A stretch of 48,136 bases of DNA, from NCBI GenBank assembly GCA_038893835.1, contig JAWAQR010000009.1, positions 1 to 48,136 on the forward strand, written 5' to 3'. Positions 3,604 to 44,599 of this stretch are shown here, in pieces (position 1 is the first letter of the stretch; each line of letters starts with the position of its first letter). The stretch is from Archaeoglobaceae archaeon. Lineage in GTDB: Archaea; Halobacteriota; Archaeoglobi; Archaeoglobales; Archaeoglobaceae. Position numbers and translations under genes: made by a program. The notes beneath the pieces are model-generated. The model did not search any database. It had not been told where the DNA came from and saw nothing but the letters and a program-made list of their open reading frames with translations.

Positions 3604-3710
3604 GAAGTAAGTTTGGGGAGAACATAAATCACTTTTGGATATCGACAATTTTCCAATTTAGAACAAAAAACTTAAAATCTATCTACAACCAAAGATTATC
3701 TGGTGAGATC

Positions 3711-13835: not shown

Positions 13836-13916
13836 GCTGGGGTTGCCGAGTGGTAAGGCGACAGCCTGCTAAGCTGTTGGGCTTTGCCCGCGTGGGTTCG
13901 AATCCCACCCCCAGCG
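13836..13916 (+). tRNA. tRNA-Ser(GCT)
   Basis: Acceptor stem GCTGGGG/CCCCAGC, anticodon arm ACAGC-CT-GCT-AA-GCTGT, long variable arm, GGTTCGAATCC, discriminator G. CCA is not encoded. Confidence 0.97.
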
Positions 13917-14029
13917 CTTTTATTCTTTGAAAACCTAACAGCTTTTGCTAAAAGAGTTATGAAAATTTTTATACTGATTCCAAAATTTAAGACAGAGTTT
14001 TGCTCAACGTTTCCGATGGTAGAAAAAAC

Positions 14030-24988: not shown

Positions 24989-24992
24989 AAAA

Positions 24993-25403
24993 TCACCCCA
25001 ATCTTATAATTGGCGAATCTTTCAAAACCTTATCACCCACTTTCACCAAAATCTCAACAACCTTTCCACTTATCGAAGCCTTTATCGGATTCTCCATTTT
25101 CATCGCTTCGATTACAGCAACAATATCTCCTTCCTTAATTTCATCTCCTACCTTCACAAAGATCTTTGTTACAATTCCATTCATCGGAGCCTTTATAACC
25201 TTTCCTTCCACTTTCTCAGCTTTAACAACTTTCTCAGCTATTTTTTCTGATGGAGTTTCAATCGAAATTGTCTTAACTTCAATCTTCGGCCTTACTTCTA
25301 TCAAAGCCGTTTTTCCGTTCACCTTCACTTGGTATAAATTTGCACCAACCTCCTCAACTTCAACCTCGTAAATTTTTCCGCCAACCTCAACTTTATAAAT
25401 CAT
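24993..25403 (-). CDS. Biotin carboxyl carrier protein
   Basis: EAMKMEN biotinylation motif. Start set at MIYKVEV. Confidence 0.93.
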
Positions 25404-25528
25404 GACATCATCCTCGCAGAAAGCTTCCAAACTTTTGGAACTTCCTTGATTTCAATCGGCTTCTCCTTTTCCTTCAAATACTTATGAATTGCTGCCAAAG
25501 CTGCTGCAAATTCTTCAGCTGACAGCAT
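25400..25528 (-). CDS. 42-aa acyl-CoA carboxylase/decarboxylase small subunit (epsilon/PccX/delta-C-terminal-like), absent from the ORF track
   Basis: Hand translation: [42 protein letters not shown]. It fills the gap between carboxyltransferase and BCCP, with an ATGA overlap. Confidence 0.8.
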   Translation of the reverse strand: MLSAEEFAAALAAIHKYLKEKEKPIEIKEVPKVWKLSARMMS

Positions 25529-25533
25529 AAATA

Positions 25534-27078
25534 TCACACTGGAATGTTGTCATGCTTCTTTGGTGGCAATCTCTCACGCTTACTCTCCAGAATTCTAAGA
25601 GCTGAGATTATCTTAACTCTAGTGTACTTTGGATCTATTACATCATCCACATATCCACGAGCCGCAGCTCTGTACGGATTTGCAAATTTCTCCCTATACT
25701 CCTTTATCTTCGCTTCCCTCATAGCCTTTGGATCGCTTGCGCTTGAAATCTCTTTTCTAAAAACTATCTCTGCCGCACCCTCTGGACCCATTACTGCGAT
25801 TTCTGCAGTTGGATAAGCAAAGACGATATCTGCTCCAAGATGTTTGCTTCCCATGGCAATGTAAGCACCTCCATAAGCCTTTCTGACAATAACTGTAACC
25901 ATTGGAACTGTCGCTTCGCTATAAGCAAAAAGAACCTTTGCTCCATGCCTTATAATACCGCCATATTCCTGCTCCACTCCTGGCAAGTAGCCTGGGACAT
26001 CAACGAAAGTTATAATTGGAATGTTGAAGCAATCGCAGAAGCGGACAAATCGGGCAATTTTGTCGCTGCTATCTATGTCAAGACAGCCGGCCAGATGCAT
26101 TGGATTGTTCGCAACTATTCCAACGCTGTAACCATCTATCCTAGCAAAACCTACGATGGCATTTGGAGCGTAATACTTGTGAATTTCGAAGAATTCACCG
26201 TTGTCAACAACTGCATTTATTATCGCATGCATGTCATATGGCTTCTGTGGATCATCTGGAATTATTTCATATATCTCCGGAGTTAACCTAGAAGGACTAT
26301 CCTTGCTTTCAACTCTGGGAGGATCTTCCATGTTGTTCAGAGGCAGATAACTCAGGAGTTTTCTGACCAGTCTCATCGCATCTTCATCGTTTTCAGCTAC
26401 TAGGTGACAGTTACCACTCCTCATCGCATGCGCCTCCCATCCGCCAAGTTCAAAGGCTGTAACATCTTCACCTGTTACAGCTTTCACAACAGCTGGCCCT
26501 GTTATGAACATGTAGCAGTTTGGATTCTTTGTCATTATTATGAAATCCCCAATGGCTGGACTGTAAACTGCCCCACCAGCACATGGGCCAAGGATGACGC
26601 TAATTTGTGGAATCACACCACTTGCAAGCGTGTTTCGATAAAATATATCCCCGTATCCCTTTAAAGCATCTACTCCTTCTTGAATTCTTGCTCCTCCGCT
26701 GTCGTTGAGACCAACAACCGGAATACCGACCTTCATTGCAAAGTCTAGTAAATAAGCGATCTTGTAACCATGCATTTCTCCAAGACTCCCTCCCATTACC
26801 GTGAAATCCTGAGCAAAGACGGCGACAGGTCTTCCATCTACGGTTCCATAGCCTGTAATGACTCCATCAGCTGGTAGGTCCATTTTATCCAATCCAAAAT
26901 CCGTATTTCTCTTCTCAACAAATGGATTGAGCTCCACAAAGCTTCCTGGATCTAGAAGTAAATCTATTCTCTCTCTTGCAGTTAGCTTTCCTTGCTCATG
27001 CTGTTTCTGTATTCTTTCGTCACCTCCCATCTTCAGTATCTTTTCCCTCCTTCTATACAATTCTCTCAGCGCCTCCAT
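25534..27078 (-). CDS. Acyl-CoA carboxyltransferase (propionyl-CoA carboxylase beta / methylmalonyl-CoA decarboxylase alpha)
   Basis: [37 protein letters not shown] and KKHDNIP. Confidence 0.95.
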
Positions 27079-27079
27079 C

Positions 27080-27469
27080 TCAACCCTCCACGAATTCTAA
27101 AAGAACACCATGTGTGCTTTTTGGATGCAGAAATGCAACCTTCTTCCCTCCAGCCCCTATTCTTGGCCTCTCATCGATCAACTTTATTCCAGAATTCTTT
27201 GCAATTTCTAGCGATCTCTCTATGTTTTCCACATTTATCGCTATATGATGCACACCCTCGCCACGGGAAGATATGAATTTTGCAATTACAGAATCTTCTG
27301 CAGTTGCTTCAAGCAGCTCTATCTTGCTTTCCCCAATCGGAAGCATCGCCACTTTTACCTTCTGCTCCTTAACCTCCTCTATATTTTTAACCTTAAATCC
27401 GAGTGACTCAAACGTCTTAATCGCCTCTTCTAGGTTTTTAACAGCTATTCCTATATGATCAATCTTCAT
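27080..27469 (-). CDS. mce: Methylmalonyl-CoA epimerase
   Basis: [21 protein letters not shown] and [13 protein letters not shown]. Confidence 0.95.
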
Positions 27470-27475
27470 AGCATT

Positions 27476-27895
27476 TCACCTCCCAATTTTTGATACCTCC
27501 CTTCTTATGAATTCCGCTATATCGCTAATCTTTGTTCCTGGAGTAAAAACTTCAGATACTCCGAGCTCTTTTAAAATCTTAACATCATCTTGCGGAATTA
27601 TCCCTCCTACGATTACTATTAAATCCTTTCCAGGTTCAAGACCTCTTTTTTTCAGCTCCTCTATCACCATCGGCACCAGCTCAAGGTGAGCTCCGCTAAG
27701 AATGCTCAAACCCAAAACCTGAACATCTTCCTGCAATGCAGTCTCAGCTATCTCCGCAGGTGTCCTTCTTATCCCAGTATATATAACTTCAAAGCCTGCA
27801 TCCCTCAAACCGCGAGCAACAACTTTTGCTCCACGATCATGCCCATCTAGTCCTGGTTTAGCTATGAGAACCCTTATTTTCTTCATTTCAAGCAT
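27476..27895 (-). CDS. Methylmalonyl-CoA mutase, cobalamin-binding small subunit
   Basis: [17 protein letters not shown] and GGIIP. Confidence 0.95.
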
Positions 27896-27919
27896 GAAAT
27901 CACCTCAACATTAAAAAAT

Positions 27920-29323
27920 TTAACCTTTTATATCCAAGAGATCGCAAACAGCTTTCTCCCTCTTTGCAAGATCGGAGAAATATTGTAGAAAAATCAGCGC
28001 TGCACTTGGTGATCCACCGCCATGGAAGGCGCCGACTAAATGGGAACTCATAACCCAAAATTCAACAAATTTTATTATTTTCATTCTATCTTCAGCTGAA
28101 AACTTTTCGCTACCCTTCATGAACTCTTCAATGATTGGGCCAATATCTCCCTTCAAATCAAACTCAGATGGTGCAGTAGCAGGAATTCCACCGGCGATAT
28201 CGATCAAATTCGCTATGCACTTAAGAAATCCCTCTACTCCAACGATCTTAGCAGAATTCGATATCTCCCTACTCGGCTGCCATGAATCCGCGACTCTGTA
28301 ACCCTTCACAGCTCCGCCAACTGCTATGGCATGTGCAGACTCGCTGAAGGCAATTATTTCAGCAACTTTCTGCCTAAGGGCTGGTACGTTTTCAAGTCCG
28401 TTAACCTTCAGCATCATACTCGCAGCTCCTGCAATGGAATCCATGAATCCCGATTTACATGCAGCGCCAACGCAACGATGTGAGCAGGCAAAAATCGTTA
28501 GCAGTTCTCTAACCGCTTTCAAATCTTGGAAAATGAAAACTCTTTCCCAAGGAATGAAAGTCTCCTTGAATATTATCATACAAGTTGTTCTATCACCAAA
28601 TTTTGGATTTCCCATCTCGAATTTCCCTCCTTCTCTGAACTTTGCCTGAATTCCAGTGTTCTGCAAAACGAACTTCACGTCATCATCTGGCAAAGAGGCG
28701 AAAGCTATTGCAAATTTCTCTTCACCCTCCTTAAACGTCTGAGTTGGTAGAACGAAGTTTACATCCGCAGCAAAAGCCCCGCTTTGATGAATCTTTGCAC
28801 CGCTTACATAAATCCCATTCTCATCCTTTCTAATTACCCTCACAAACATGTTTTCCTGCTGAAGAGGTCTCTTACTTCTATCTCCCTTCACATCCGTTAA
28901 CGCTGAAGTGCAGGCAAAATCGTTTTTCTGAATTTCCTTCAAAAACTTTAGAAATCTCTTGTGATAGTCCGTTCCCTCTCTTTCATCTACCATTTTGGTA
29001 ACTGGGTAAAGAGAATTTATCGCATCACATCCGGTGCAGCGATAGTTGCAAGTTGCAAGTCTCAAACTAAGCTCCCTTTGAAAGTCGTATCTTTTTATCA
29101 AATCCTCTGCATTTTTCATCACAGCGTTTAAAATATTCACTTTTTCACCAATAAGATCTGAAAAAACCGCATAATCAGATGCGAGGTCGTAAGTCATTGC
29201 TATCGCATTGATAACTGGTCTTATGTTTGGATGGTTTATCCAATCCTCAACTCTTTTTCCCGCAACATATATCGCCCTCTTATAACCATTCAATCTTTCA
29301 ACATATTCCTTCCCGCTAATCAT
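27920..29323 (-). CDS. 4-hydroxybutyryl-CoA dehydratase-like FAD/[4Fe-4S] protein (HpaB/AbfD family)
   Basis: CNYRC and HRCVGAAC give the 3Cys+His cluster ligands. TDVKGDRS, GAKIHQS and HGGGSP are also present. Confidence 0.87.
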   Translation of the reverse strand: MISGKEYVERLNGYKRAIYVAGKRVEDWINHPNIRPVINAIAMTYDLASDYAVFSDLIGEKVNILNAVMKNAEDLIKRYDFQRELSLRLATCNYRCTGCDAINSLYPVTKMVDEREGTDYHKRFLKFLKEIQKNDFACTSALTDVKGDRSKRPLQQENMFVRVIRKDENGIYVSGAKIHQSGAFAADVNFVLPTQTFKEGEEKFAIAFASLPDDDVKFVLQNTGIQAKFREGGKFEMGNPKFGDRTTCMIIFKETFIPWERVFIFQDLKAVRELLTIFACSHRCVGAACKSGFMDSIAGAASMMLKVNGLENVPALRQKVAEIIAFSESAHAIAVGGAVKGYRVADSWQPSREISNSAKIVGVEGFLKCIANLIDIAGGIPATAPSEFDLKGDIGPIIEEFMKGSEKFSAEDRMKIIKFVEFWVMSSHLVGAFHGGGSPSAALIFLQYFSDLAKREKAVCDLLDIKG

Positions 29324-29327
29324 CTAA

Positions 29328-30089
29328 TCACCCCCAATTTGGCCTTCTTTTCTCAAAAAACGCCTTAATTCCCTCCCTCGCAAATTTCGAACTTGAATGC
29401 AAAGCTATCGTTTCCGTGGCAAATTTAAGCGCGGAAAAGTCTTCCATAAACATCTGACTATAGAAAAACCTTTTCCCCGATTCAAGAACCTCAAGCGGAA
29501 ATCTCGCAATTTTCTTCGCAATTTCCTCTGTTTCCTTCTCAAGCGCTTCATCTTTCACCACCTTATTAACAAGCCCAATTCTCAGCGCCTCCTCAGCGTT
29601 GATGGGATCTCCAAGAATTCCGAGTTCAAATGCCTTCTTTCTTCCAACGTTTCTGCTCACAAACACAATTGGAGTAAAGCAAAAAAGCCCTATGTTCACA
29701 CCAGGAGTTGCAAATTTTGCATTTTCAGAAGCTATTGCTAAATCGCAGGCTGCAACTAACTGACAGCCCGCAGCATAAGCAACTCCGCGAACCATTGCGA
29801 TGAATGGCTGAGGGGCGCTGCGTATTGCGAACATAACCTTAAAGCATTGCAAAAACAATTTTTCAACTTCAATTGGGTCCAATTCATAAATCTCCCTCAA
29901 ATCGTGTCCAGCAGAGAAATTTTTTCCAGCACCAGTTAAAATGACAACCCTAACATTCCTTTCTTCCGATATTTTCTTTATTAACCGTTCTAGATCACAT
30001 AGAGTTTCGAGCGAGAGAGGATTTATTTTTTCTGGATTGTTAAGAGTTATCTTTCCAATCCTTTCTCTTTCTTCGTATAAAACTCTCAT
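29328..30089 (-). CDS. Crotonase-fold protein (ECHDC3-like) lacking both catalytic Glu
   Basis: FSAGHDL, AAGCQLVAACD and FATPGVNIGLFC. Confidence 0.88.
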   Translation of the reverse strand: MRVLYEERERIGKITLNNPEKINPLSLETLCDLERLIKKISEERNVRVVILTGAGKNFSAGHDLREIYELDPIEVEKLFLQCFKVMFAIRSAPQPFIAMVRGVAYAAGCQLVAACDLAIASENAKFATPGVNIGLFCFTPIVFVSRNVGRKKAFELGILGDPINAEEALRIGLVNKVVKDEALEKETEEIAKKIARFPLEVLESGKRFFYSQMFMEDFSALKFATETIALHSSSKFAREGIKAFFEKRRPNWG

Positions 30090-30095
30090 AAATAC

Positions 30096-30170
30096 TGATG
30101 GTACCATCAAAAATAAAAGCTTTTTTGAATTAAACCTTTGATGATTCAAAAAAGAAAAAGTTAAATAAGC
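30096..30170. promoter_or_regulatory. Divergent promoter with two inverted repeats (candidate operators)
   Basis: Perfect palindrome TGATGGTACCATCA at 30096-30109. CTTTTTTGAAT-N13-ATTCAAAAAAG at 30120-30154. BRE/TATA GAAAAAG-TTAAATA at 30154-30167. Confidence 0.6.
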
Positions 30171-30199
30171 AATTAAACTCATTTTTTATTGGTGATTAA

Positions 30200-31339
30200 A
30201 TGCCTGCTATAGTTGGAGTAGGTTACAGCGGTTTTAATACAAATACACCTGATCTCAGCTGGAAAGAAATCATGTACGAAGCTGCTGTCAGAGCTTACGA
30301 AGATGCTGGAATAAATCCAAGAAGAGATGTGGACAGCTTTGTAACATGTGCCGAGGACTTTTACGAAGGATTTGCAATCTTCGATGAATTTGTTCCAGAT
30401 CAGTTGGGCGCAGTTTTAAAACCAACGTGCACAATCTGCTCAGATTTCCTCTATGGACTCGCTACTGCATATATGCAAATAGAGAGTGGACTGGCAAACA
30501 TCGTAGTTGTTGAAGCCCATAGCAAGGCGAGTGACATGAAAACCTTTGGAGAAATAATAAGACATGCGATGGATCCAATTTGGCTAAAGGGTGTTACCAA
30601 AGCACACCCATACTACTTTGCAGCTTTGGAGATGAGCTATTACATAAATAAATATGGTATAAAGGAAGAGGCAATTGCAGAGGTTGTTGTGAAGAATAAG
30701 AAGAATGCAATTCTGAACGATGCTGCTCCTTACGGTGCAAAGCTGACCATAGATGATGTGCTAAAAAGCCCATTTGTTTTCTACCCAATGAGAAAAATAG
30801 AGATCGCCGAACGCTCCGATGGAGCGATAGTTTTCGTAGTAGCCAGTGATGAGGTTGCCAGAAAGCTTACGGATACACCAGTATGGATAAAAGGTATCGG
30901 CTGGTGGAGTGAAACTAGCAACTACGATACGATGAGTTTTGAGGCTCTTTATGCCTATAAAGCAGGAAAAATGGCTTATAAAATGGCAGAAATAGAAGTT
31001 CCGTCCAGAGAAGTTGATATTGCAGAAGTTGATGATAGATTTGCGTTCAAAGAATTACAGCACATCGTAGCATTGCAGCTTGCCAGAAAATATGAAGTGT
31101 GCGATCTGATGCTTGAAGGATATTTCTCGAGAAATGGTTCACTACCCGTTAATGTCTCCGGTGGAAATCTTGGAGTTGGGAACTTGCTAGAAGCCACTGG
31201 TGGACAGAAGGCACTTGAAATAGTTTTACAGTTACGCGGAGAGGCTGGGAAAAGACAGGTGGATTGTGAAGTTGGAGTTGCGCAAAGCTGGCGTTATGTT
31301 CCAACTGCAAGTGGTGCAGTTGCCATTTTCGGGGTGTGA
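30200..31339 (+). CDS. Thiolase-fold (SCP-x type) protein, non-canonical active site
   Basis: AIVGVG, VKNKKNA, DGA and VNVSGGNLGVGN. Confidence 0.88.
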   Translation: MPAIVGVGYSGFNTNTPDLSWKEIMYEAAVRAYEDAGINPRRDVDSFVTCAEDFYEGFAIFDEFVPDQLGAVLKPTCTICSDFLYGLATAYMQIESGLANIVVVEAHSKASDMKTFGEIIRHAMDPIWLKGVTKAHPYYFAALEMSYYINKYGIKEEAIAEVVVKNKKNAILNDAAPYGAKLTIDDVLKSPFVFYPMRKIEIAERSDGAIVFVVASDEVARKLTDTPVWIKGIGWWSETSNYDTMSFEALYAYKAGKMAYKMAEIEVPSREVDIAEVDDRFAFKELQHIVALQLARKYEVCDLMLEGYFSRNGSLPVNVSGGNLGVGNLLEATGGQKALEIVLQLRGEAGKRQVDCEVGVAQSWRYVPTASGAVAIFGV

Positions 31340-31342
31340 TGT

Positions 31343-32545
31343 ATGGAGATTGAGCTCGTAAAGGGTTTAAAGTTTCATAAAAAGCAAGATGTTGCAATTG
31401 TTGGCGCCGGAATGACGACTTTCAAGCGGAGATTGCTTGAAACAGGTAAAGAACTTTCATACTTTGCTGTCAAACAAGCCTTGGAAGAGGCCGGATTGGA
31501 AATAAAGGATATAGAAATGGTAGTTCTTGGTTCAGCTCCAGATGCTTTCGATGGTACTGCTTTAAAGGGCGAGTACTTGCTCGATGGTGCAGGCGGGAGC
31601 GATCGTCCATATATGAGAGTCTTTGTGGGCGGTGGTACAGCTGTCTTTGCTCCAATCGCTGGTTACTGGCATGTGGCAAGCGGATTGGCTGACGTTTGCC
31701 TTGTCGTTTGTGAAGAAAAAATGTCATGCTGCTATCCGCATCCACAATCAGCGTTCAAATACATCTGGGATCCAATTCTTGAAAGGCCACTTAAGCCAAA
31801 CCTCATATGGATCTTTGCACTGGAAATGCAACGCTATATGCATGTTAACAATGTGAAGCATGAAGATATCGCACTGGTTTCGGTTAAAAACAAGGCAAAT
31901 GCTCTAGACCATCCATGTGCGCAGGTTGCGGAAAAGATTACAGTTGAAGACGTGCTGAAAAGCGAACCAATGGCCTTGCCTGTAAGAAGACTTGACGTTT
32001 CACCACCAAGCGATGGTGCTGCGGCACTTATAATGGTCGCACCCCACATTGCAAGGCAGCTGACAGATGAGCCTGTCTGGGTTACAGGGGTAGGCTGGTG
32101 CCTTGATACTACGCATTGGACAAATCGTGACTTGTATTTCCCGAGATATGTTGCAGAAGCTGCAAGAATGGCCTATAGAATGGCCCATATAACAGATCCA
32201 AGGAAGCAAATAGACGTGGCAGAGCCTTATGATCCGTTCGATTACAAGGAGCTCCACCACATGGAAGGACTTGGACTTGCTAGAAAGGGAGAAGCGCCAA
32301 TTTTAACGAGAGAAGGTGTAACTGCCAGAGATGGAGATTTGCCAGTGTGTCCATCTGGTGGATTGCTAGGTGTAGGAAATCCAATCGCAGCAGCAATGGG
32401 TGTTAAGGCTTGCGAAATTTACTGGCAGCTTGCATATAGAGCTGGGAAGAGGCAAGTTGCGAAGGAAGTAACTACTGGTGTCTGCCAAGCTTGGGGAGAT
32501 TTGATGCAGATTGGGACCGTGATGGTTATGTCGAATAAGAGGTGA
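31343..32545 (+). CDS. Thiolase-fold (SCP-x type) protein, non-canonical active site
   Basis: VAIVGAGMT, EEKMS, SPPSDGAAA, EPYDPF and PSGGLLGVGNP. Confidence 0.88.
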   Translation: MEIELVKGLKFHKKQDVAIVGAGMTTFKRRLLETGKELSYFAVKQALEEAGLEIKDIEMVVLGSAPDAFDGTALKGEYLLDGAGGSDRPYMRVFVGGGTAVFAPIAGYWHVASGLADVCLVVCEEKMSCCYPHPQSAFKYIWDPILERPLKPNLIWIFALEMQRYMHVNNVKHEDIALVSVKNKANALDHPCAQVAEKITVEDVLKSEPMALPVRRLDVSPPSDGAAALIMVAPHIARQLTDEPVWVTGVGWCLDTTHWTNRDLYFPRYVAEAARMAYRMAHITDPRKQIDVAEPYDPFDYKELHHMEGLGLARKGEAPILTREGVTARDGDLPVCPSGGLLGVGNPIAAAMGVKACEIYWQLAYRAGKRQVAKEVTTGVCQAWGDLMQIGTVMVMSNKR

Positions 32546-32549
32546 AATT

Positions 32550-33080
32550 ATGGCTGTTGGAAAGAAGAAATTGGAGTGCCCTCCATATGCTGAAGGAACT
32601 CCAATTTCTGAGGCGGATATAAGCAATAGGAAAGTAACTTTCTTCGAAGATCATCCGAACCTAGTTTATTCTTGGACAGCTGGACAGGCGATGAGCAGAT
32701 TTCTTAATGAGCTTAAGAATGGAAGGTTAATTGCGACGAAGTGCGAAAGATGCAATCGAGTGATTTTCCCACCTAGGATTTACTGCGAGCTTTGTTATAA
32801 GCCAATAGACGGATGGGTTTACGTTAAGGATACCGGAACCGTGCAAACTTTCTCCATTTCCTACATCGATCCAGATGCGAGACCTTTGGATAAGCCGGTG
32901 ATAGTTGCGGTTATAGCAGTTGATGGTGCCTCAAAGAATATGGGGATCCTGCACATCCTCGGTGAAGTTGAACCGGAAAAAGTCTACATTGGAATGCGTG
33001 TAAAAGCTGTTTGGAAGCCGGAAAATGAGAGAAGAGGTGAAATTACAGACATAAAGTACTGGAAACCATTGGAGGTGTGA
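32550..33080 (+). CDS. DUF35 Zn-ribbon/OB-fold protein
   Basis: CERC..PPRIYCELC and IGMRVKAVW. Confidence 0.9.
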   Translation: MAVGKKKLECPPYAEGTPISEADISNRKVTFFEDHPNLVYSWTAGQAMSRFLNELKNGRLIATKCERCNRVIFPPRIYCELCYKPIDGWVYVKDTGTVQTFSISYIDPDARPLDKPVIVAVIAVDGASKNMGILHILGEVEPEKVYIGMRVKAVWKPENERRGEITDIKYWKPLEV

Positions 33081-33541
33081 AAATGATTGAAAAAATTGTT
33101 GATCCAGAAAAACTCCGTCATTATCCGCCTGGTGGAGGAAAAATAGAGCTTTACTGGATTTACACGAGTGGGAGAGCTGGAGATTTGTTTTTTAAAAAGC
33201 TGAAGGAGGGAAAATTCATCGCTGCTAAATGCAAGAAATGCGGCCATCGCTTTTTCCCGCCTAGGATTTATTGCGAGTTTGATTTTAGCGATACTGAATT
33301 CTATGAAGTGAGTGGAGAGGGGTGCATTGAAGCCTTTACCATTGCAAAGCTAGATTTGAACGAACAACCAATGGAAGAGATAATAGCTCTAATAAAGCTT
33401 GACGGAACAGATGGGAGGATTATACATGTTATAAAAGAGGCAAAGGAAGTTTGCATAGGGATGAGAGTAAAGCCTGTGCTTAAGAAGCCGGAAGAAATGA
33501 CAGGGACGATTTCCGACATAGCGTATTTTAAACCAGTTTAA
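33077..33541 (+). CDS. DUF35 Zn-ribbon/OB-fold protein
   Basis: CKKC..PPRIYCEFD and IGMRVKPV. Confidence 0.9.
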   Translation: MKMIEKIVDPEKLRHYPPGGGKIELYWIYTSGRAGDLFFKKLKEGKFIAAKCKKCGHRFFPPRIYCEFDFSDTEFYEVSGEGCIEAFTIAKLDLNEQPMEEIIALIKLDGTDGRIIHVIKEAKEVCIGMRVKPVLKKPEEMTGTISDIAYFKPV

Positions 33542-33563
33542 TTTTATTATTTTGGTGATAGAT

Positions 33564-34745
33564 ATGGATTTTGAGTTCAACGAAGATCAAAAGATGATTG
33601 CAAACACAGCAAAAGAGATTGCTGAAGATTTTCCACCTGAATACTGGAGGGAAAAGGAAGAAAAAGGTGAGTTCGCGGAAGAGTTCTTCAAGGCAATTGC
33701 AAAAGCTGGTTTCTTTGGAATTGTGATTCCAGAAGAGTATGGGGGTTCAGGATATGGAATTACAGAACTTTTGATTGCGATGGAAGAATTGGCTGCAAAC
33801 GGCTGTGGAATGGCAGGGGTTTGGTATTTAATGCTGACAGAAGTTTTTGGAGGTTTAACAATAGTGAGACATGGGACGGAGAAACAGAAAGAAAAATATT
33901 TACCAAAGATTGCCAAAGGTGAGCTTGAGTTTTGCATGGCCTTGACTGAGCCGGATGCTGGGACTAATACGCTTGCGATAAAGACGAGGGCAGTTAAAGA
34001 TGGCGATGAGTGGGTGATAAATGGGAACAAGATATGGATAAGCGGTGCAGATAGAGCTAAGGGAATGCTAATCGTTGCCAGAACTACACCTCTAGAAAAG
34101 GCACCAAAGAAAACATTTGGACTTAGTCTTTTCATAGCTGATTTACCAAATAAAGCTGTGAAGATCAATCCAATTCCAAAGCACGCCATAAATTATTCAA
34201 AAAGTTGCGAAGTGAGTTTTAACGATCTTCGTTTGCCAAGTGATGCGCTAATTCCACCATTGGATGAAGGGTGGTATTTGATACTCGATACGCTCAATCC
34301 AGAAAGAATGGGTTTCGCAACTGCAGCGATTGGAATAAGTAGATTGGCGATAAAAAAAGCTGTTGAATATTCAAAACAGAGAAAGGTTTTTGCTGATCCA
34401 ATTGGAAGTTATCAAGGATTGCAGTTTCCAATCGCCGAGGCTTACTCGATGCTTGAATGTGCGAAGCTTATGAACTTCAAAGCAGCATGGCTTTATGATA
34501 AAAAGGCAAGTTACAGAGAAGTGGGAGCCTTTGCGAACATGGCAAAGATCGTAGCTGTTGAAGCTGGGATAAAAGCCGTTTACTGGGCAATGCAGACTTT
34601 TGGCGGATATGGGTATGCGAAAGAATACGATGTTGAGAGATGGTGGAGGGAGATAAATCTCATCCGCTTGGCTCCTGTTACGCAACAGATGGCTCTGAAT
34701 TACATAGCCGAACACGTTCTAGGTTTTCCGAAAAGTTATAGATGA
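33564..34745 (+). CDS. Acyl-CoA dehydrogenase
   Basis: IPEEYGG, ALTEPDAGT, NGNKIWIS, LNPER and QTFGGYGY. Confidence 0.95.
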   Translation: MDFEFNEDQKMIANTAKEIAEDFPPEYWREKEEKGEFAEEFFKAIAKAGFFGIVIPEEYGGSGYGITELLIAMEELAANGCGMAGVWYLMLTEVFGGLTIVRHGTEKQKEKYLPKIAKGELEFCMALTEPDAGTNTLAIKTRAVKDGDEWVINGNKIWISGADRAKGMLIVARTTPLEKAPKKTFGLSLFIADLPNKAVKINPIPKHAINYSKSCEVSFNDLRLPSDALIPPLDEGWYLILDTLNPERMGFATAAIGISRLAIKKAVEYSKQRKVFADPIGSYQGLQFPIAEAYSMLECAKLMNFKAAWLYDKKASYREVGAFANMAKIVAVEAGIKAVYWAMQTFGGYGYAKEYDVERWWREINLIRLAPVTQQMALNYIAEHVLGFPKSYR

Positions 34746-35521
34746 GTATGGCGGTTGAGATAAGAAAGGAAGAGGGAATTCTCTGGGTAAAATTCAATCG
34801 CCCAGAAGCGCTGAACGCGATAAATGAAGAAGTGATCAGAGGTCTTAGGAAAGCGATCAAAATTGCAAGGGAAGATAAGGAAGTCAGAGTGATGGTTTTG
34901 ACTGGAGAAGGTAGAGCTTTCTGTGCTGGAGCTGATGTAAAGATGTTTTCTAAGATGAACACATATGAGGCTAGAAGGATCATTGAAGAGCTTGGAAAAG
35001 CTTTGGAAGAGCTTGAAGATCTTGAAATTCCGGTAATAGCAGCTGTTAATGGCCTAGCTCTTGGTGGTGGTTGCGAAATAGCAATGGCATGCGATTTGAT
35101 AATAGCGAGTGAGAAGGCTGTTTTTGGTCAGCCGGAAATAAATTTGGGAATAATTCCAGGAGCAGGAGGGACGCAAAGGCTTGCCAGAATAGTTGGTTGG
35201 AAAAAGGCAATGGAATTATGTCTTACCGGGGAAAGAATAGATGCAAGAGAAGCGGAAAGGCTTGGTCTTGTGAACAGAGTTGTTGAGCATGATAAGCTAA
35301 TGGAGGAAGCGAAGAAATTTGCTGAAAAGTTGAAGACGAAATCTCCAAAAGCTCTTATGTTTGTAAAGCAAGCTGTGAATAGGGGTTTCAAGATGAGCTT
35401 GGAAAATGGCATAAAATACGAGCGAGACCTCTTCGCTCTATCTTTTGCCAGTAAGGATGCTGAAGAAGGAATAAGGGCTTTTGTTGAGAAAAGAGTTCCG
35501 AAGTTTGGTGAGAGAGAATGA
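34742..35521 (+). CDS. Enoyl-CoA hydratase
   Basis: AFCAGAD, GGGCE and QPEINLGIIPGAGGTQRL; both catalytic Glu are present. Confidence 0.95.
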   Translation: MSMAVEIRKEEGILWVKFNRPEALNAINEEVIRGLRKAIKIAREDKEVRVMVLTGEGRAFCAGADVKMFSKMNTYEARRIIEELGKALEELEDLEIPVIAAVNGLALGGGCEIAMACDLIIASEKAVFGQPEINLGIIPGAGGTQRLARIVGWKKAMELCLTGERIDAREAERLGLVNRVVEHDKLMEEAKKFAEKLKTKSPKALMFVKQAVNRGFKMSLENGIKYERDLFALSFASKDAEEGIRAFVEKRVPKFGERE

Positions 35522-36618
35522 AAGTCATATATTATTTTTTATTACTGTTGCTTCTGTTTTCAGCCTGTGTGCAGCAAAAAGAGGAGATAAGAATAGGGGT
35601 ACTAGTGCCGAAGACGGGTGAATTCTCCTCAGCAGGACTTGTGATGGAAAATGCTGCAAAGCTCGCTGAGAAACATGCTAAGGAATTTTTTGGTTTAAAC
35701 GTCAAAGTAGTGATAGCAGACTGTGGTGATAAGCCAGAGACTGCAAAAACAGCCTTTATTTCACTGGCACAGCAAGGAGTTGTTGCGATAGTTGGCGCAT
35801 ATTCTAGTCCACAGAGCTTAGTGCTTGCAGATACGGCAAAGGAATTGAAGGTTGTTTATATTGCAAGCGTTGCCTCAGCAGATCTTGAAAGTAAGGTTAA
35901 AGATGGAAATAAATTCGTCTTTAGAAACGCATACAATGTAACATACTGGGGCATTTTGGCCGTTGAATTTCTCGAAAAAATCGATGCAAAGAGCTATTAC
36001 TTAGTAGGCTATGATCCACTAAGAACCTTTAACGCGGCTTTGTTCAGCTTGATAAAGAACTCAACAAAAGCGGAGTTAAAGGGGGAAGATTGGATCAAAT
36101 CACCAAGCGTAGCTCCTGAAGATTATAAGAGAGCAGTTGAAAAAGCTTTGGCAAGCGATGCAGAAGTGATAATCCTTGGCGATCCTGGGGTAATGAGTGT
36201 GAGCTTTGTGAGAGAATATGCGATGAAGGGGGGAAAAGCGACAATCTATTCTGTCGGCGGAACGCTCGCTTTACCATACGTTTTGAGGAGTCTAAACGTC
36301 AACAACATCGCATTTCAGGCTGCTGCAATTGAAGGGGAAGAGAAGACTGTATTGACGAAGAAATACTTTGAAGATTACAAGGCTAATTTTAAAGAAGATG
36401 CGAACAACTATGCAGGAATTCTAACTTATGATGCGATTCTAATAGCTGCACAAGCGGCATCGAAAGGAAAGTTGATTGAAGAACTTGAAAAAGGTGAATT
36501 CATAGGAGCTGCTGGAATTTACAGCTTCAACGAAAATCATCAGGCAAAATGGGGAACTGAAAAGCTAAAGGGTAGTATCGGAATTTACAAGGATGGAAGA
36601 ATTGAGATTCTAAAATGA
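35518..36618 (+). CDS. HAAT/LIV-type ABC transporter substrate-binding lipoprotein
   Basis: Lipobox LLFSAC, IRIGVLVPKTG, VGAYSS and TYDA. Confidence 0.88.
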   Translation: MKVIYYFLLLLLLFSACVQQKEEIRIGVLVPKTGEFSSAGLVMENAAKLAEKHAKEFFGLNVKVVIADCGDKPETAKTAFISLAQQGVVAIVGAYSSPQSLVLADTAKELKVVYIASVASADLESKVKDGNKFVFRNAYNVTYWGILAVEFLEKIDAKSYYLVGYDPLRTFNAALFSLIKNSTKAELKGEDWIKSPSVAPEDYKRAVEKALASDAEVIILGDPGVMSVSFVREYAMKGGKATIYSVGGTLALPYVLRSLNVNNIAFQAAAIEGEEKTVLTKKYFEDYKANFKEDANNYAGILTYDAILIAAQAASKGKLIEELEKGEFIGAAGIYSFNENHQAKWGTEKLKGSIGIYKDGRIEILK

Positions 36619-37301
36619 TCTCCGAAATTCTAACTTCTTTTTTTTACTCAGCCTTTTCGGTCTCCATTCTCCTCTGCTATCGTGCTGGGAAAATACTGAA
36701 TCTATCCCTAGCCTCTCTATTTACTCTTGGAGCATATCTATCCCAAAGTCCAATCTTGGCAATTCTTCTTGGTGCAATGGTAGGTTTTTTATTGCATAAG
36801 ATTACAAAAAAGCTCAGCATAACCAAAGCCACAGTTTTTTCACTAGCTCTTGCAATTGCGATTGAGGAATTTCTTAGAATAATATTCAAAACCGAATACG
36901 TGATATTTCAAGTGAACAAAATAACCCTCCTTGGAGAAAGTATTCTGTTTCCTCATCTTCTTGCTGGGATAATATCGATGGGTTTCGTGATTCTTTTTCT
37001 GGCCTTTTTATTCACCGAAAAGTCAAAGAATTTGAAAATCGTTGAAGAAGATCCAGAGCTTGCCGAGTTGTATGGGGTGAGAGTTGAAAGAATGAGAATG
37101 TTTATTCTGACATCAACGGGAGCTTTAATAGCACTCCTGGGCTCCCTTCAAAACCCCGGAATAGTATATCCAACAATCGGCTGGCAGTACTTGATCTTTG
37201 CCGTGATTGTTGCGACTTTTGCCAACATCTTTGAGGAAAAGGCTTACATTTTTGCATTCATCTTTGCCCTTTTGGCGACATGCTTGCCAAAGCTATTCTG
37301 A
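36615..37301 (+). CDS. HAAT ABC permease (LivH-like, short)
   Basis: ILNLS and EDPELAELYGV; hydrophobic. Confidence 0.8.
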   Translation: MISEILTSFFYSAFSVSILLCYRAGKILNLSLASLFTLGAYLSQSPILAILLGAMVGFLLHKITKKLSITKATVFSLALAIAIEEFLRIIFKTEYVIFQVNKITLLGESILFPHLLAGIISMGFVILFLAFLFTEKSKNLKIVEEDPELAELYGVRVERMRMFILTSTGALIALLGSLQNPGIVYPTIGWQYLIFAVIVATFANIFEEKAYIFAFIFALLATCLPKLF

Positions 37302-38107
37302 TAACCTTACCTCTCCTAATACCTCCTCTCCTTGGTTACTATCCAACCTTCATAGCTTTGATGGCGATAAATCTTGGATTAATGGCAGTCGCATGGCATT
37401 TCATGGAAAAAGATGGCGGCTGGGTGAGTTTGGGACATTCAATTCCATTCGGAATCTCTGCTTATCTCTTCGCTCTTAATCCACAAATTACACCTCTATC
37501 TTTTCTCAGCTTTCTAATTCTCATCCTACTTTCTTTTACCGGAAAAAGACTCTTCCCATTTGCAACTTTCCTAGCATCAGTGGCTTTTTGGCAGCTCTCG
37601 CATTACCTCATAATCGATGGTAGGGGAGGAGAAGAGGGATTTAGAGTCGCAATCTCACTTCCCTTAGCAGACCTCTATGTAATTTCTGCAACTTTCTTCC
37701 TGCTCAGCTATTTGGGCCTAGAACTTCTAAGCAAATCAGAGCTTGGATTAAAAATAATGGCTGTCAGAGATGATGAGATCGCTGCTAGGAGCATAGGAAT
37801 TAGTCCAATTCTCTATAGATTTTTTGTTTTTCTTTTATCATCAACCCTTACATCGATTTCCGGTATTTTGCATGCACTAACGTTCTCCCATGTTTCCCCT
37901 ACTATATTCTCACCTTTCTACTCCCTTTTCCCATTCGTAGTCTCTGTAATTTCCATGGGAAAACGTTGGATCTTTTTAATTGGAAGTCTCTCAGTTATAA
38001 CAATATCCCATGTCCTGTCCTCAATAATTCCAGAAGCCCACTACGTTCTTTATTCAGCCGCGCTGATGCTCTTTTCAGCGGTGAAAAGGGATGTTGAAGA
38101 TAGTTGA
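37280..38107 (+). CDS. HAAT ABC permease (LivM-like)
   Basis: GWVSLGH, GGEEG and AVRDDEIAARSIGI. Confidence 0.85.
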   Translation: MLAKAILITLPLLIPPLLGYYPTFIALMAINLGLMAVAWHFMEKDGGWVSLGHSIPFGISAYLFALNPQITPLSFLSFLILILLSFTGKRLFPFATFLASVAFWQLSHYLIIDGRGGEEGFRVAISLPLADLYVISATFFLLSYLGLELLSKSELGLKIMAVRDDEIAARSIGISPILYRFFVFLLSSTLTSISGILHALTFSHVSPTIFSPFYSLFPFVVSVISMGKRWIFLIGSLSVITISHVLSSIIPEAHYVLYSAALMLFSAVKRDVEDS

Positions 38108-38723
38108 GTTATCAAAAGTCTATGGAAGATCTGCAGTTTTAAAGGGGATAAATCTGGAACTAAAAAAGGGGACATATTGCCTATTTGGTCCAAATGGCAG
38201 CGGAAAGACAACGCTTCTCAAGATAATTTCCGGGTTCGAGAAACCAACATGTGGAAGGATATTTTTTAAAGATTTGGAAATTACCGGGCTTAAAGCAGAA
38301 AGAATTTCGAAACTCGGCATAGCAATTGCATTTCAAATACCCCATGTCTTCTGGAATCTAAGTGTGGAGCAGAACATTTTCCTAGCCTGCAAAGATTGGG
38401 GAAAAGCTGAGGAAATTGCAGAAATGTTTAGACTCAAGGGAGAACTAAAATACCAGGCCAAAAAACTTTCACAAGGAAAATTGAAACTTTTGCAAATTTC
38501 AATGGCATTTGCAACAAAACCAAAACTCCTTTTGTTAGATGAACCATTTGCGGGTCTTGATGTTAGAAACGTGAGACTAATGTTGGAAATTCTAAAAGAA
38601 ATAAGGGCAGAGACATCGATGATAATTACTTCACACAGACCAAAACTTCTAAGAGGGATTGCGGATAGTTTCTTGGAATTAAAGGGTGGTAAGATTGTTG
38701 AAAGCCAAAAAAATCCTGTTTGA
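38091..38723 (+). CDS. ABC ATP-binding protein (LivG-like)
   Basis: GPNGSGKT, FQIP and LLLDEP. Confidence 0.9.
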   Translation: MLKIVELSKVYGRSAVLKGINLELKKGTYCLFGPNGSGKTTLLKIISGFEKPTCGRIFFKDLEITGLKAERISKLGIAIAFQIPHVFWNLSVEQNIFLACKDWGKAEEIAEMFRLKGELKYQAKKLSQGKLKLLQISMAFATKPKLLLLDEPFAGLDVRNVRLMLEILKEIRAETSMIITSHRPKLLRGIADSFLELKGGKIVESQKNPV

Positions 38724-39348
38724 AAGAAATTTTCGTATAATTCTGAATTTCGTAGATTTTGAAATAGAAAAAGGAATGACTCTAATCGTTGGACCAAATG
38801 CAAGTGGGAAGAGTACACTTCTTAAAGTTCTAGCCGGGGTTTATAAACCAAAAAGTGGTTCCATTTTTTTAGATTATAGAGAGATAACCCACTTACCTCC
38901 AAGCGAAAGGTTAAAGCTTGGAATCGTGCTCGCTCCTGAAAGAATGAGAATTGCCCTAAATCTAACCGTGGATGAGAATTTGAGTTTTTCAAGAAAAGAG
39001 AGAGCTTATGAGCTATTTCCTGAACTGGAAAAGATTAAAAATAGGAAAGGCAGGGAATTGAGCGGTGGGGAGAGACAAATGGTTGTCCTCGCAAGAGCTT
39101 TGGCTACAGAAGGAAAGTATTTTCTTCTTGATGAACCTTTTCAAGGTCTGCATGAAATTTACAAGCAAAGAATCATAGAAATACTCCAAGAACTTTCGAA
39201 GAAGGCTGCAATAGCAGTTGCGACGCATGATGAAATAGAAGAGCTGCTTGAAATAGCGAATGAAGTCTACATCCTCGTAAGTGGAGAAGTAAAGTTCTCT
39301 GGAAAAAAGGCTGATGGAGAAAAAATCGTCCGTGAAATGTTCCTTTAA
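38686..39348 (+). CDS. ABC ATP-binding protein (LivF-like)
   Basis: GPNASGKS, LSGGERQM and LLDEP. Confidence 0.9.
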   Translation: MVRLLKAKKILFERNFRIILNFVDFEIEKGMTLIVGPNASGKSTLLKVLAGVYKPKSGSIFLDYREITHLPPSERLKLGIVLAPERMRIALNLTVDENLSFSRKERAYELFPELEKIKNRKGRELSGGERQMVVLARALATEGKYFLLDEPFQGLHEIYKQRIIEILQELSKKAAIAVATHDEIEELLEIANEVYILVSGEVKFSGKKADGEKIVREMFL

Positions 39349-44528: not shown

Positions 44529-44599
44529 TGCGCAGGCCGGGATTTGAACCCGGGCTAACGGCCTGGAAAGCCGTTGTCCTACCACTAGACTACCTGCGC
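44529..44599 (-). tRNA. tRNA-Gly(TCC)
   Basis: Reverse complement GCGCAGG...AACGGC-TT-TCC-AG-GCCGTT...GGTTCAAATCC..CCTGCGC-A. BRE/TATA CGAAAAAAA-TTTAAG ~25 nt upstream. Confidence 0.97.

Follow-up and report, generated by a model that had tools for sequence, protein, structure and literature searches.

A row of four genes in an Archaeoglobaceae genome, encoding two thiolase-fold proteins (ThlA and ThlB) and two DUF35 proteins (DUF35a and DUF35b), represents a uniform, so far uncharacterised module of many archaea and bacteria, whose products probably form one complex and, judging by their sequences, probably perform a carbon–carbon reaction on CoA esters other than that of a thiolase. The reading that we favour, with a probability of roughly 0.45, is a single ThlA·ThlB·DUF35a·DUF35b complex in which ThlB would be the catalytic subunit and would cleave a CoA ester by a tyrosine-based, aldol-type reaction. 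We found no published account of a ThlA/ThlB/DUF35a/DUF35b module in the literature.

The module and its genomic setting

In the window (the whole 48,136-nucleotide stretch of DNA that was analysed), the four genes occupy positions 30200–33541 of the forward strand, with stop and start codons that adjoin or overlap. ThlA (30200..31339, 379 aa) and ThlB (31343..32545, 400 aa) both carry the thiolase fold in Pfam (Thiolase_C_1, Thiolase_N) and match the NCBIfam models NF004722 (PRK06066; 572.8 bits against a curated cut-off of 516) and NF004721 (PRK06065; 738.3 bits against 455), respectively, both of which are titled 'thiolase domain-containing protein'. DUF35a (32550..33080, 176 aa) and DUF35b (33077..33541; 154 aa from the GTG at 33077 or 152 aa from the ATG at 33083) each combine a rubredoxin-like zinc ribbon with an OB fold (zf-ChsH2 and OB_ChsH2_C in Pfam, the latter scoring 23.2 in DUF35b, below the cut-off of 27.1), and SSO2064 (3irb) is the best solved match for both. 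The ribbon of DUF35a (CxxC...CxxC, 32742–32795) keeps its four cysteines in 69 of 69 orthologues, while the fourth ligand of DUF35b (CxxC...CxxD, 33230–33283) is Cys in 40 and Asp in 30 of 70.

An acyl-CoA dehydrogenase gene (ACAD, 33552..34745), likely in one transcript with the module, begins on the same strand 10 nt 3′ of DUF35b; it overlaps by 4 nt a crotonase-type enoyl-CoA hydratase gene (ECH, 34742..35521), which is followed directly, with no gaps, by LivKHMGF-type ABC transporter genes (35518..39348), also on the forward strand. The module's operon contains no 3-hydroxyacyl-CoA dehydrogenase gene; elsewhere, the genome carries four dehydrogenase genes and three canonical Cys/His thiolase–DUF35 pairs. 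A divergent row on the reverse strand (23336..30182), which we regard as context outside the proposed complex, encodes a crotonase, an HpaB/AbfD-family protein, a B12-binding mutase subunit, a methylmalonyl-CoA epimerase, an mmdA-like carboxyltransferase (984 bits, under the profile cut-off of 998.8), a biotin carrier and a mutase large subunit.

The four genes stand in one order in 57 of 80 loci, covering at least seven archaeal lineages, and the order is identical in Chloroflexota and SAR324. In 25 bacterial loci, from Desulfobulbales and Myxococcota, ThlB and two DUF35 modules are fused into one protein of ~730 aa (ThlB-DUF35-DUF35), with ThlA encoded by a separate upstream gene; one such fused protein still scores 536.3 bits against NF004721. 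ThlA and ThlB form sister clades (SH-aLRT 100, 100 and 99) with mirrored topologies, and DUF35a and DUF35b also group as sister clades (support 92, 75 and 99). Read from these sequence phylogenies, the module is ancient and built on two sister duplications.

The initial annotation had derived the substrate, a branched or tertiary hydroxyacyl-CoA, from the co-transcribed ACAD and ECH. Support for this is local only: 9 of 15 diverse loci have an ACAD gene within 6 kb of the module, but a crotonase-type hydratase was found near it in only one of 15 diverse Pfam-annotated loci and in none of the bacterial loci examined; the link to the hydratase belongs mostly to Archaeoglobi loci. As for the further proposal that the reaction feeds propionyl-CoA to the divergent row, the recurrence of methylmalonyl-CoA genes is neutral as to propionyl-CoA being a product.

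Former active sites of the two thiolase-fold proteins

To establish residue equivalences, we aligned the two proteins with HMMER to the solved structures 7yvy, 4yzo and 6esq of thiolases and to trypanosomatid SCP2-thiolases; aligning them by MAFFT to the canonical paralogues encoded in the same genome led to the same equivalences. Conservation was read from two orthologue sets, one with up to 81 ThlB sequences and a second, mostly bacterial one with 54. The motifs quoted in the initial annotation are all present in the two genes, as verified in the translations and codon positions.

In ThlB, the segment RVFVGGGTA (31616–31642, with GGGT at 31628..31639) places Gly97 in the column of the nucleophilic Cys; in EPYDPF (YDPF at 32228..32239), the His-Asp-Cys-Phe of thiolases has become Tyr296-Asp-Pro298-Phe; and in GNPIAAAMG (GNP at 32375..32383), Asn346 takes the place of the His of Gly-His-Pro. 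These replacements are nearly fixed: G96 and G97 occur in 80/80 and 54/54 orthologues of the first and the mostly bacterial set, and Y296, P298 and N346 each in 81/81 and 53/54, which leaves essentially every ThlB orthologue without any of the four canonical thiolase catalytic residues. The loops of the former active site nevertheless hold invariant polar residues (Y296, D297, N346, D386 and H306), and ThlB, with 63–72% identity between phyla, is among the best-conserved proteins encoded in this neighbourhood, its mean column identity being 71% compared to 61% for ThlA.

ThlA is less uniform at the corresponding sites. Following a 3-residue deletion just before the nucleophile position, its TCTICSDF loop (30425..30448) carries Cys80 (30437–30439), the second Cys of TCTIC, in the nucleophile column of both alignments. 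In EVDDRF (31025..31042), Asp278 and Arg280 replace the His and Cys of HDCF, position 278 being Asp in 62, His in 8 and Cys in 1 sequence of the first set, and Asp in 23 and Ser in 22 of the mostly bacterial one; in GNLLEATG (31178..31201), Asn328 replaces the GHP His, with Asn in 56, Tyr in 8 and His in 3 sequences of the first set, and Asp in 27, Asn in 18 and His in 5 of the second. The claim that both proteins lack the canonical catalytic set is thus borne out by the residue alignments, except that ThlA is not Cys-less at this site. The annotation had itself named a TCTIC cysteine in the nucleophile position, together with ordinary acetoacetyl-CoA thiolysis by the complex, as evidence against its interpretation; such a residue does occur in this window, but it is retained in only 40/69 and 8/52 orthologues, and therefore Cys80 is not a family-wide nucleophile. 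ThlA has invariant polar residues of its own (E105, K109, D279, N318, W364 and R365, in 52/52 sequences of the mostly bacterial set), given which it may be more than a structural subunit.

The proposed complex and its relation to known systems

Structure prediction gave a ThlA–ThlB heterodimer with ipSAE values of 0.94, 0.94 and 0.93, compared to 0.01 for the best control (of 157 solved complexes, 116 reach the mark used, as do 2 of 215 mismatched pairs), with at least 91% of contacts common to the runs and a pLDDT of at least 88 for the partner. This score may, however, reflect the predictor's memory of solved thiolase homodimers, as the model uses the generic dimer face. The modelled interface holds 12 of 46 invariant ThlA residues (odds ratio 2.1, p 0.049). 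The ThlA monomer model reached a pLDDT of 88.2, that of ThlB only a moderate 75.3, and Foldseek aligned both with solved thiolases at TM 0.80–0.89. The initial annotation's 2+2 heteromer, with one strongly constrained, putatively catalytic subunit and one looser subunit, fits the gene order, the sister-clade trees, the fusion form and the heterodimer model.

In the complex that we propose, ThlA and ThlB would form the core as a heterodimer joined through the usual dimer face of thiolases, and each thiolase-fold subunit would bind one DUF35 protein, giving a 1:1:1:1 stoichiometry. ThlB would be the catalytic subunit, working like the steroid aldolases Ltp2 and Sal. Because Gly97 fills the nucleophile position, ThlB could not form an acyl-enzyme; instead, Tyr296, the candidate base, would take the proton from the β-hydroxyl of a 3-hydroxyacyl-CoA, the C2–C3 bond would be cleaved, and Asn346, a candidate oxyanion-hole amide, would hold the thioester enolate together with a backbone amide. 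The products would be a short acyl-CoA and an aldehyde or ketone. ThlA, whose old catalytic positions vary while its modelled interface is conserved, would serve mainly as a structural, pocket-shaping partner. A possible substrate is a short or 2-methyl-branched 3-hydroxyacyl-CoA supplied by the neighbouring dehydrogenase and hydratase.

The resemblance of ThlB to Ltp2 and Sal that the annotation had pointed out is real at the level of residues. In the published account (PMC12329534), the Tyr of TcLtp2 (Y294DHF) and of CtSal (Y302DCY) is the experimentally shown base, and CtSal has Gly in the nucleophile position and an amide residue, Gln352, 50 residues past that Tyr; going by this description, Asn346 of ThlB stands at the same spacing from Tyr296. 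With Ltp2-ChsH2 (6ok1) and Sal-Shy (9myr), ThlB shares the SCP2-thiolase fold, the loss of the nucleophilic Cys (G97), a Tyr-Asp at the HDCF position (Y296-D297), a residue other than His (in ThlB and Sal an amide) 50 positions further on, a partner of the DUF35 family and an ACAD in the pathway, whereas ThlA, with D278, lacks the Tyr-Asp tyrosine. The third motif residue, on the other hand, is Pro in ThlB instead of His or Cys, the DUF35 proteins of the module are free-standing or fused to ThlB and not joined to a MaoC hydratase, and the core is predicted to pair two paralogues in a heterodimer, with two distinct DUF35s and no steroid context. Both by alignment and by the 50-residue spacing, ThlB lacks the second catalytic residue of these enzymes, with Pro298 in the position of Cys304 of Sal and Asn346 in that of Tyr344 of Ltp2. 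The absence of both known acid catalysts speaks against the aldolase reading.

ThlB is not a member of the Ltp2/Sal clades: it matches an archaeal thiolase at an E-value of 7.6e-43, compared to 1.4e-16 for Ltp2 and 6.8e-16 for Sal, which rank only 26th and 44th among the solved structures in Foldseek. Since ThlB falls outside these clades, any likeness to the aldolases would be convergent. The archaeal DUF35-dependent thiolases (6et9/6esq) are closest in sequence and fold (TM 0.85) and share the DUF35 partnership, but their Cys, HDCF and GHP are intact and they form homodimers with a single type of DUF35, whereas the module has these residues replaced and consists of two paralogous pairs; as a canonical SCP2-type or archaeal thiolase (EC 2.3.1.9/16), ThlB has the fold but neither the nucleophilic Cys, nor the HDCF His and Cys, nor the GHP His. 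PhlACB and MucABC (5m3k and 9vbo) likewise combine two different thiolase-superfamily subunits, one of them non-catalytic, with DUF35. However, PhlA and the corresponding MucABC subunit resemble KAS III (9vbo_E is titled as a KAS III domain protein) and are not SCP2-type sister paralogues, PhlC has a catalytic Cys (a C88S mutant appears in the title of 9skm) that ThlB lacks, and there is one DUF35 instead of two, with E-values of only 1e-14; the module does not have the subunit make-up of a PhlACB-type acyltransferase. TbSLP (5ab4–5ab7), like ThlB, is described as having no Cys in the nucleophile column and a Tyr-Asp motif, in its case YDCF, but it keeps the motif Cys, the material available on it describes no DUF35 partner, and its sequence match to ThlB is weak (E 3.2e-4). 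In BbsAB (7pxp, titled benzoylsuccinyl-CoA thiolase), which ranks 4th in Foldseek, DUF35 and an SCP2-type fold act after an ACAD and a hydratase; BbsAB retains the thiolase catalytic Cys, the NCBIfam model of BbsB gives 107 bits, where the cut-off is 750, and the genome encodes no glycyl-radical enzyme.

Alternative chemistries and assemblies

Some neighbourhoods of the module would suit a 3-oxoacyl-CoA or methylmalonyl-CoA substrate equally well, which also counts against the aldolase reading. Mutase genes adjoin the module in seven Bathyarchaeia loci, as does the divergent row here, and lie directly upstream on the same strand in one bacterial locus, while a carboxyltransferase follows the module in another locus. 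These genes would agree with the same complex catalysing a different non-thiolytic enolate reaction, chiefly decarboxylation of a (methyl)malonyl-CoA-type ester or an isomerisation, using Asn346 and the backbone as an oxyanion hole and no nucleophile; moreover, the Cys-less relative TbSLP decarboxylates malonyl-CoA, although at the very low kcat of 0.005 per s, and CtSal shows no such activity, according to the same account (PMC12329534). We consider this unlikely, as 13 of 15 diverse loci have no mutase nearby, the window already contains an mmdA-like carboxyltransferase with a biotin carrier, and the invariant Tyr296 would be left unexplained.

The assembly could also differ from the one proposed, with ThlA and ThlB forming separate homodimers, each with its own DUF35, as two α2β2 complexes of one pathway. 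The thiolase-fold core is homodimeric in the DUF35 complexes covered by the descriptions available to us (α-β-β-α in Sal and α2-β2 in Saci_1121/1120), and the heterodimer score carries the caveat given above. What makes this arrangement improbable is the fusion form, in which both DUF35 modules are attached to ThlB and ThlA has none; two DUF35 modules on the fused ThlB, one per thiolase-fold subunit, fit a ThlA–ThlB core. In addition, wherever a contig end does not truncate the locus, the genes of both thiolase-fold proteins are almost always present, each of the 36 Archaeoglobi genomes with ThlB has one copy of its gene, and the trees of the two proteins mirror each other.

It is quite improbable that the complex has remained a thiolase or condensing enzyme, acting on short 3-oxoacyl-CoAs, through direct attack by CoA or through ThlA Cys80. 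The public name at JGI, acetyl-CoA C-acetyltransferase, and several Ato-like neighbours (a pair of family-I CoA-transferase subunits encoded immediately upstream in two loci, a short-chain fatty acid transporter in one and BKACE downstream in two) would agree with such a role, as would Cys80 itself in this window, but they are set against the loss of all four catalytic residues in ThlB, the inconstancy of Cys80, the Asp/Ser and Asn/Asp found at its partner His positions, and the three canonical thiolase–DUF35 pairs already in the genome. A catalytically dead complex that serves acyl-CoA enzymes as scaffold, carrier or regulator, conceivable in that both subunits lack the canonical residues and known complexes use DUF35 proteins as scaffolds, is very hard to reconcile with the conservation of ThlB between phyla and its invariant active-site polar residues.

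The tyrosine-based cleavage that we favour lends itself to a broader, and doubtful, extension, in which the module would be a previously unrecognised, widespread lyase acting on CoA esters in anaerobic archaea and bacteria, independent in origin from the steroid aldolases and pairing Tyr296 with a proton donor that is neither Cys nor Tyr, perhaps Asp386 or a ThlA residue lent across the dimer interface. Its substrates would be 3-hydroxyacyl-CoAs beyond the reach of dehydrogenase and thiolase, for example tertiary or 2-methyl-branched ones that originate in branched-chain amino acids or in isoprenoid acids. If this is true, these organisms would possess a branch of β-oxidation that is independent of dehydrogenase and thiolase and releases an aldehyde or ketone.

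Active-site residues of the two thiolase-fold proteins

The translations of ThlA (30200–31339, +) and ThlB (31343–32545, +), the two thiolase-fold proteins of the four-gene module, contain all of the motifs quoted in the initial annotation. Residue equivalences were derived from HMMER alignments to solved thiolases and from a MAFFT alignment with the paralogues of the window's own genome, and the two agree. In ThlB, Gly97 stands in place of the nucleophilic Cys, the HDCF motif has Tyr296 for its His and Pro298 for its Cys, and the His of the GHP motif gives way to Asn346. ThlA carries Asp278, Arg280 and Asn328 at the positions of the HDCF His, the HDCF Cys and the GHP His, respectively, while its Cys80, following a 3-residue deletion, occupies the nucleophile position. 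The proposal that both proteins lack the thiolase catalytic residues thus holds entirely for ThlB, whereas in ThlA three positions out of four conform to it and the nucleophile position does not. The active-site observation is real and lies far beyond chance, and ThlB cannot work as a thiolase.

Our first comparison set consisted of the best 80 loci from the 375 of 384 candidate stretches that encode a relative. Here, ThlB residues G96, G97, Y296, D297, P298, F299, G345, N346, P347 and I348 are invariant (80–81 of 81 rows). In a second set of ThlB-like sequences (n = 54, mostly bacterial), G97 is present in all 54 rows, and Y296, P298 and N346 in 53 each; the single deviant row, which has canonical residues, is probably not an orthologue. 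ThlA Cys80 is retained in 40 of 69 and in 8 of 52 rows, with Ser, Thr, Ala, Pro or Asp in the others, and positions 278 and 328 are likewise variable among orthologues. ThlA has its own invariant residues, namely E52, D53, T78, D82, E105, K109, D279, N318, W364 and R365 (52 of 52 rows). Between phyla, ThlB is 63–72% identical, as opposed to 43–60% for ThlA. As for the small partners, the four Cys residues of DUF35a are kept in 69 of 69 sequences. The zinc ribbon of DUF35b (33230–33283) reads CxxC...CxxD, the fourth ligand being Asp, a position filled by Asp in 30 and by Cys in 40 of 70 orthologues; this arrangement recalls the Cys3His1 ribbon described for the DUF35 protein Shy (PMC12329534).

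The genome to which the window belongs, with an estimated completeness of 97%, spans 1.17 Mb over 35 contigs; this is among the smaller sizes in the class, the other listed Archaeoglobi genomes measuring ~0.9–2.8 Mb. Its three further thiolase–DUF35 pairs (contigs C2, C6 and C12) retain the Cys, HDCF and GHP motifs; the active-site deviation is specific to the four-gene module. The genome encodes four 3-hydroxyacyl-CoA dehydrogenases and three canonical thiolases elsewhere, which indicates that the module supplements rather than replaces ordinary beta-oxidation. A fifth thiolase-fold paralogue, located outside the window (contig C16:14549–15769, −), has Asp at the nucleophile position (VENADASGG), keeps the His in both HDSF and GHA and has no adjacent DUF35 hit; it is another non-canonical thiolase-like protein of this genome.

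Gene order, fusion and origin of the module

All four genes occur in the order ThlA–ThlB–DUF35–DUF35 in 57 of the 80 best loci, and several of the remaining 23 end at a contig edge (e.g. L019, L028, L031 and L039). In Nitrososphaeria, the two DUF35 genes are found 2–3 kb away or on the opposite strand. Archaeal lineages with the module include Archaeoglobi, Bathyarchaeia, Thermoplasmatota, Promethearchaeota, Hermodarchaeota, Thermoprotei, Nitrososphaeria and Methanofastidiosia, and the four unfused genes retain their order in Chloroflexota, SAR324, Thorarchaeota and further Bathyarchaeia loci.

A search for longer ThlB relatives returned 143 proteins of 701–2000 residues (E ≤ 1e-20). The best 120 of these are nearly all 711–745 residues long, are 53–65% identical to ThlB and carry DUF35 domains, with alignments spanning 84–98% of the ThlB length (~96% in most). 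Seven long relatives were scanned against Pfam, and in two of them (P0006 and P0071) a ThlB domain at ~1–390 is followed by two DUF35 modules at ~445–550 and ~608–708. Desulfobulbales, Myxococcota/Bradymonadales and other bacteria provide at least 25 loci in which a separate ThlA gene is directly followed by the fused gene, often with a 4-nt overlap. The fused form still matches NF004721, the ThlB family, with 536 bits. Another database protein, P0015, joins an N-terminal glyoxalase/VOC domain to a ThlB part that scores 601 bits to NF004721; we rejected it as a link to methylmalonyl-CoA epimerase, as it has no similarity to the epimerase of the window and is a single metagenome record, and it may be a gene-calling artefact.

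Within the window's genome, ThlA and ThlB are mutual best paralogues (37.6% identity), as are DUF35a and DUF35b (37.7%). When 51 thiolase-fold sequences were placed in a tree, with seven other thiolases as the root, ThlA and ThlB formed sister clades (SH-aLRT 100 for each, 99 for their joint node) with mirrored internal topologies and much shorter branches in ThlB. DUF35a and DUF35b are likewise sister clades, with weaker support (92, 75 and 99). On these comparisons, the four-gene module is ancient and uniform. ThlB is up to 97% identical in related Archaeoglobaceae contigs. Above the family cut-off, it is found in 36 of 96 Archaeoglobi genomes (29 of 73 high-quality genomes, 11 of 21 genera), always in a single copy, and this distribution makes the module accessory, not essential.

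Predicted complex and candidate chemistry

In the complexes described in the literature examined, each thiolase-fold subunit has one DUF35 partner, as in the alpha-beta-beta-alpha assembly of the steroid side-chain retro-aldolase Sal (PMC12329534) and in alpha2-beta2 Saci_1121/1120 (Schmerling et al. preprint). Since the fused chain combines ThlB with two DUF35 domains beside a DUF35-free ThlA, a 1:1:1:1 complex is the simplest reading, and the earlier idea of a heteromer is well supported by the comparative evidence. In structure prediction, the ThlA–ThlB pair reached ipSAE values of 0.94, 0.94 and 0.93, compared with 0.01 for the best control; of 157 solved complexes, 116 attained this mark, as did 2 of 215 mismatched pairs. 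The runs shared at least 91% of contacts, with a partner pLDDT of at least 88. As the modelled contacts fall on the generic thiolase dimer face, the score may reflect memory of solved homodimers. The modelled interface involves ThlB residues 85–97 (including G96 and G97) and 385–387, and ThlA residues 51–67, 71–81 and 365. It contains 12 of the 46 invariant ThlA residues (odds ratio 2.1, p 0.049); the corresponding enrichment for ThlB was not significant.

The closest matches of both single-chain models (pLDDT 88.2 for ThlA and 75.3 for ThlB) are DUF35-associated archaeal thiolases. The top structural matches of ThlB are 6et9/6esq (TM 0.85), then 7yvy and BbsB, with the retro-aldolase Ltp2 ranking 26th and Sal 44th, while ThlA best matches 7yvy and the Sulfolobus tokodaii thiolase-like protein ST0096 (4yzo). 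SSO2064, from whose description the DUF35 fold is known, is the best solved match for DUF35a and DUF35b alike.

Could a Cys-less thiolase fold act as an aldolase? In TcLtp2, Tyr294 of the YDHF motif serves as the base and Tyr344 as the acid, whereas CtSal relies on Tyr302 and Cys304 of YDCY, its nucleophile position being Gly and its Gln352 corresponding to Tyr344 of Ltp2 (Rolfe et al. 2025, PMC12329534); both motifs are the counterpart of HDCF in SCP2-thiolase (PMC12329534). Like CtSal, ThlB combines a Gly in place of the nucleophile with Tyr-Asp and, 50 residues past the Tyr, an amide, but it bears Pro where Sal has its essential Cys, and unlike TcLtp2 it has no equivalent of Tyr344. We based this equivalence on the common HDCF position and the 50-residue spacing, because HMMER with the ThlB C-terminal domain aligned trypanosomatid thiolases instead. 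On this residue comparison, ThlB might perform a Tyr296-based aldol-type cleavage, for which the invariant Asp386, in the C-terminal loop that bears the oxyanion-hole Gly in relatives, would be a candidate proton donor. With one defining residue missing, aldolase chemistry is the best available, though unproven, reading of ThlB. Given that ThlB groups with archaeal thiolases and not with Ltp2 or Sal, any mechanistic likeness to these two would be convergent.

Genomic context and implications

The module opens a tightly packed plus-strand row (30200–39348) with 3–10 nt gaps or 4-nt overlaps, in which ThlA and ThlB are followed by DUF35a (32550–33080, +), DUF35b (33077 or 33083 to 33541, +, with two candidate starts), an acyl-CoA dehydrogenase (33552–34745, +), a crotonase-type enoyl-CoA hydratase (34742–35521, +) and a LivKHMGF-type ABC transporter (35518–39348, +). 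On the minus strand, the divergent row comprises genes for another crotonase, an HpaB/AbfD-family protein, both subunits (small and large) of a methylmalonyl-CoA-type mutase, methylmalonyl-CoA epimerase, an ADP-forming acyl-CoA synthetase, a biotin carrier and an mmdA-like carboxyltransferase (984 bits; cut-off 998.8), and may constitute a propionate/succinate/C4 conversion route. Its HpaB/AbfD-family gene (27920–29323, −), which forms one row with the genes at 23336–27895 (−), is possibly 4-hydroxybutyryl-CoA dehydratase-like, by family assignment only. The longest ORF of the divergent crotonase (29328–30182, −) begins 17 nt from the ThlA start; its crotonase domain begins at residue 38, Met26 or Met32 are likelier starts, and these would leave a shared promoter region of ~90–110 nt. 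Sigma-70 promoter and terminator scans, which are not meaningful for an archaeon, did not exceed shuffle expectation. Genes for tRNA-Ser(GCT) (13836–13917, +) and tRNA-Gly(TCC) (44529–44599, −) occupy the window's two ORF-poor gaps. The window, which encodes no canonical thiolase, also holds an HMG-CoA reductase gene (2338–3648, −), 27 kb away from the module.

Within 6 kb of the module in 15 diverse Pfam-annotated loci, an acyl-CoA dehydrogenase is encoded in 9, CoA transferases and acyl-CoA synthetases in 3 each, mutase genes, BKACE and a canonical thiolase–DUF35 pair in 2 each, and a crotonase in 1. Directly downstream of the module lie an aldehyde:ferredoxin oxidoreductase in one of these loci (L038:8354–10222, Promethearchaeota) and, in a single case, a PFL-like glycyl-radical enzyme (L073:8395–10791, Promethearchaeota). 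The latter, together with two family-III CoA transferases at another locus (L020), prompted a possible link to fumarate addition (Bbs/Ass-like), which we rejected as a general one because the window's genome has no PFL-like gene. In seven Bathyarchaeia loci, tblastn places mutase genes next to the module. Among bacteria, both mutase subunits lie directly upstream at L100; at L081, the downstream genes encode a dehydrogenase, an acyl-CoA synthetase and an acetyl-CoA hydrolase/transferase, and at L130 a carboxyltransferase follows the module. Chloroflexota loci mostly have housekeeping genes as neighbours. It is safe to conclude that the module belongs to short-chain acyl-CoA metabolism, with a recurrent link to the dehydrogenase and a lineage-specific one to the methylmalonyl-CoA route. 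The substrate initially proposed, a branched or tertiary 3-hydroxyacyl-CoA yielding propionyl-CoA, is compatible with this context, which does not single it out.

We found no description of the two-thiolase/two-DUF35 module, of PRK06065/PRK06066 or of the function of ST0096 in a search lying mostly outside subscription journals, where publication is possible. Schmerling et al. (preprint) studied a canonical ketothiolase/DUF35 pair and counted seven pairs in Sulfolobus acidocaldarius, with no account of Cys-less ones, although the supplements may list such pairs. NCBIfam names both families only, and uninformatively, 'thiolase domain-containing protein', and JGI names the fused form acetyl-CoA C-acetyltransferase. 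The module is a widespread, mis-annotated variant of known thiolase-fold/DUF35 systems. As an orthologue above the family cut-off is present in the genetically tractable S. acidocaldarius, the question is directly testable. As an obligate heterodimer of two SCP2-type thiolase-fold paralogues, served by two dedicated DUF35 partners, the predicted complex would be the first of its kind, and ThlB may represent a second, independent origin of Tyr-based chemistry in the thiolase fold. The module is highly conserved, single-copy wherever copies were counted, and spread across Archaeoglobi, Bathyarchaeia, Thermoplasmatota, Asgard archaea, Nitrososphaeria, Chloroflexota, Desulfobulbales and others. 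A systematic mis-assignment is therefore probable in the metabolic reconstructions of these anaerobes, which would lack one reaction.
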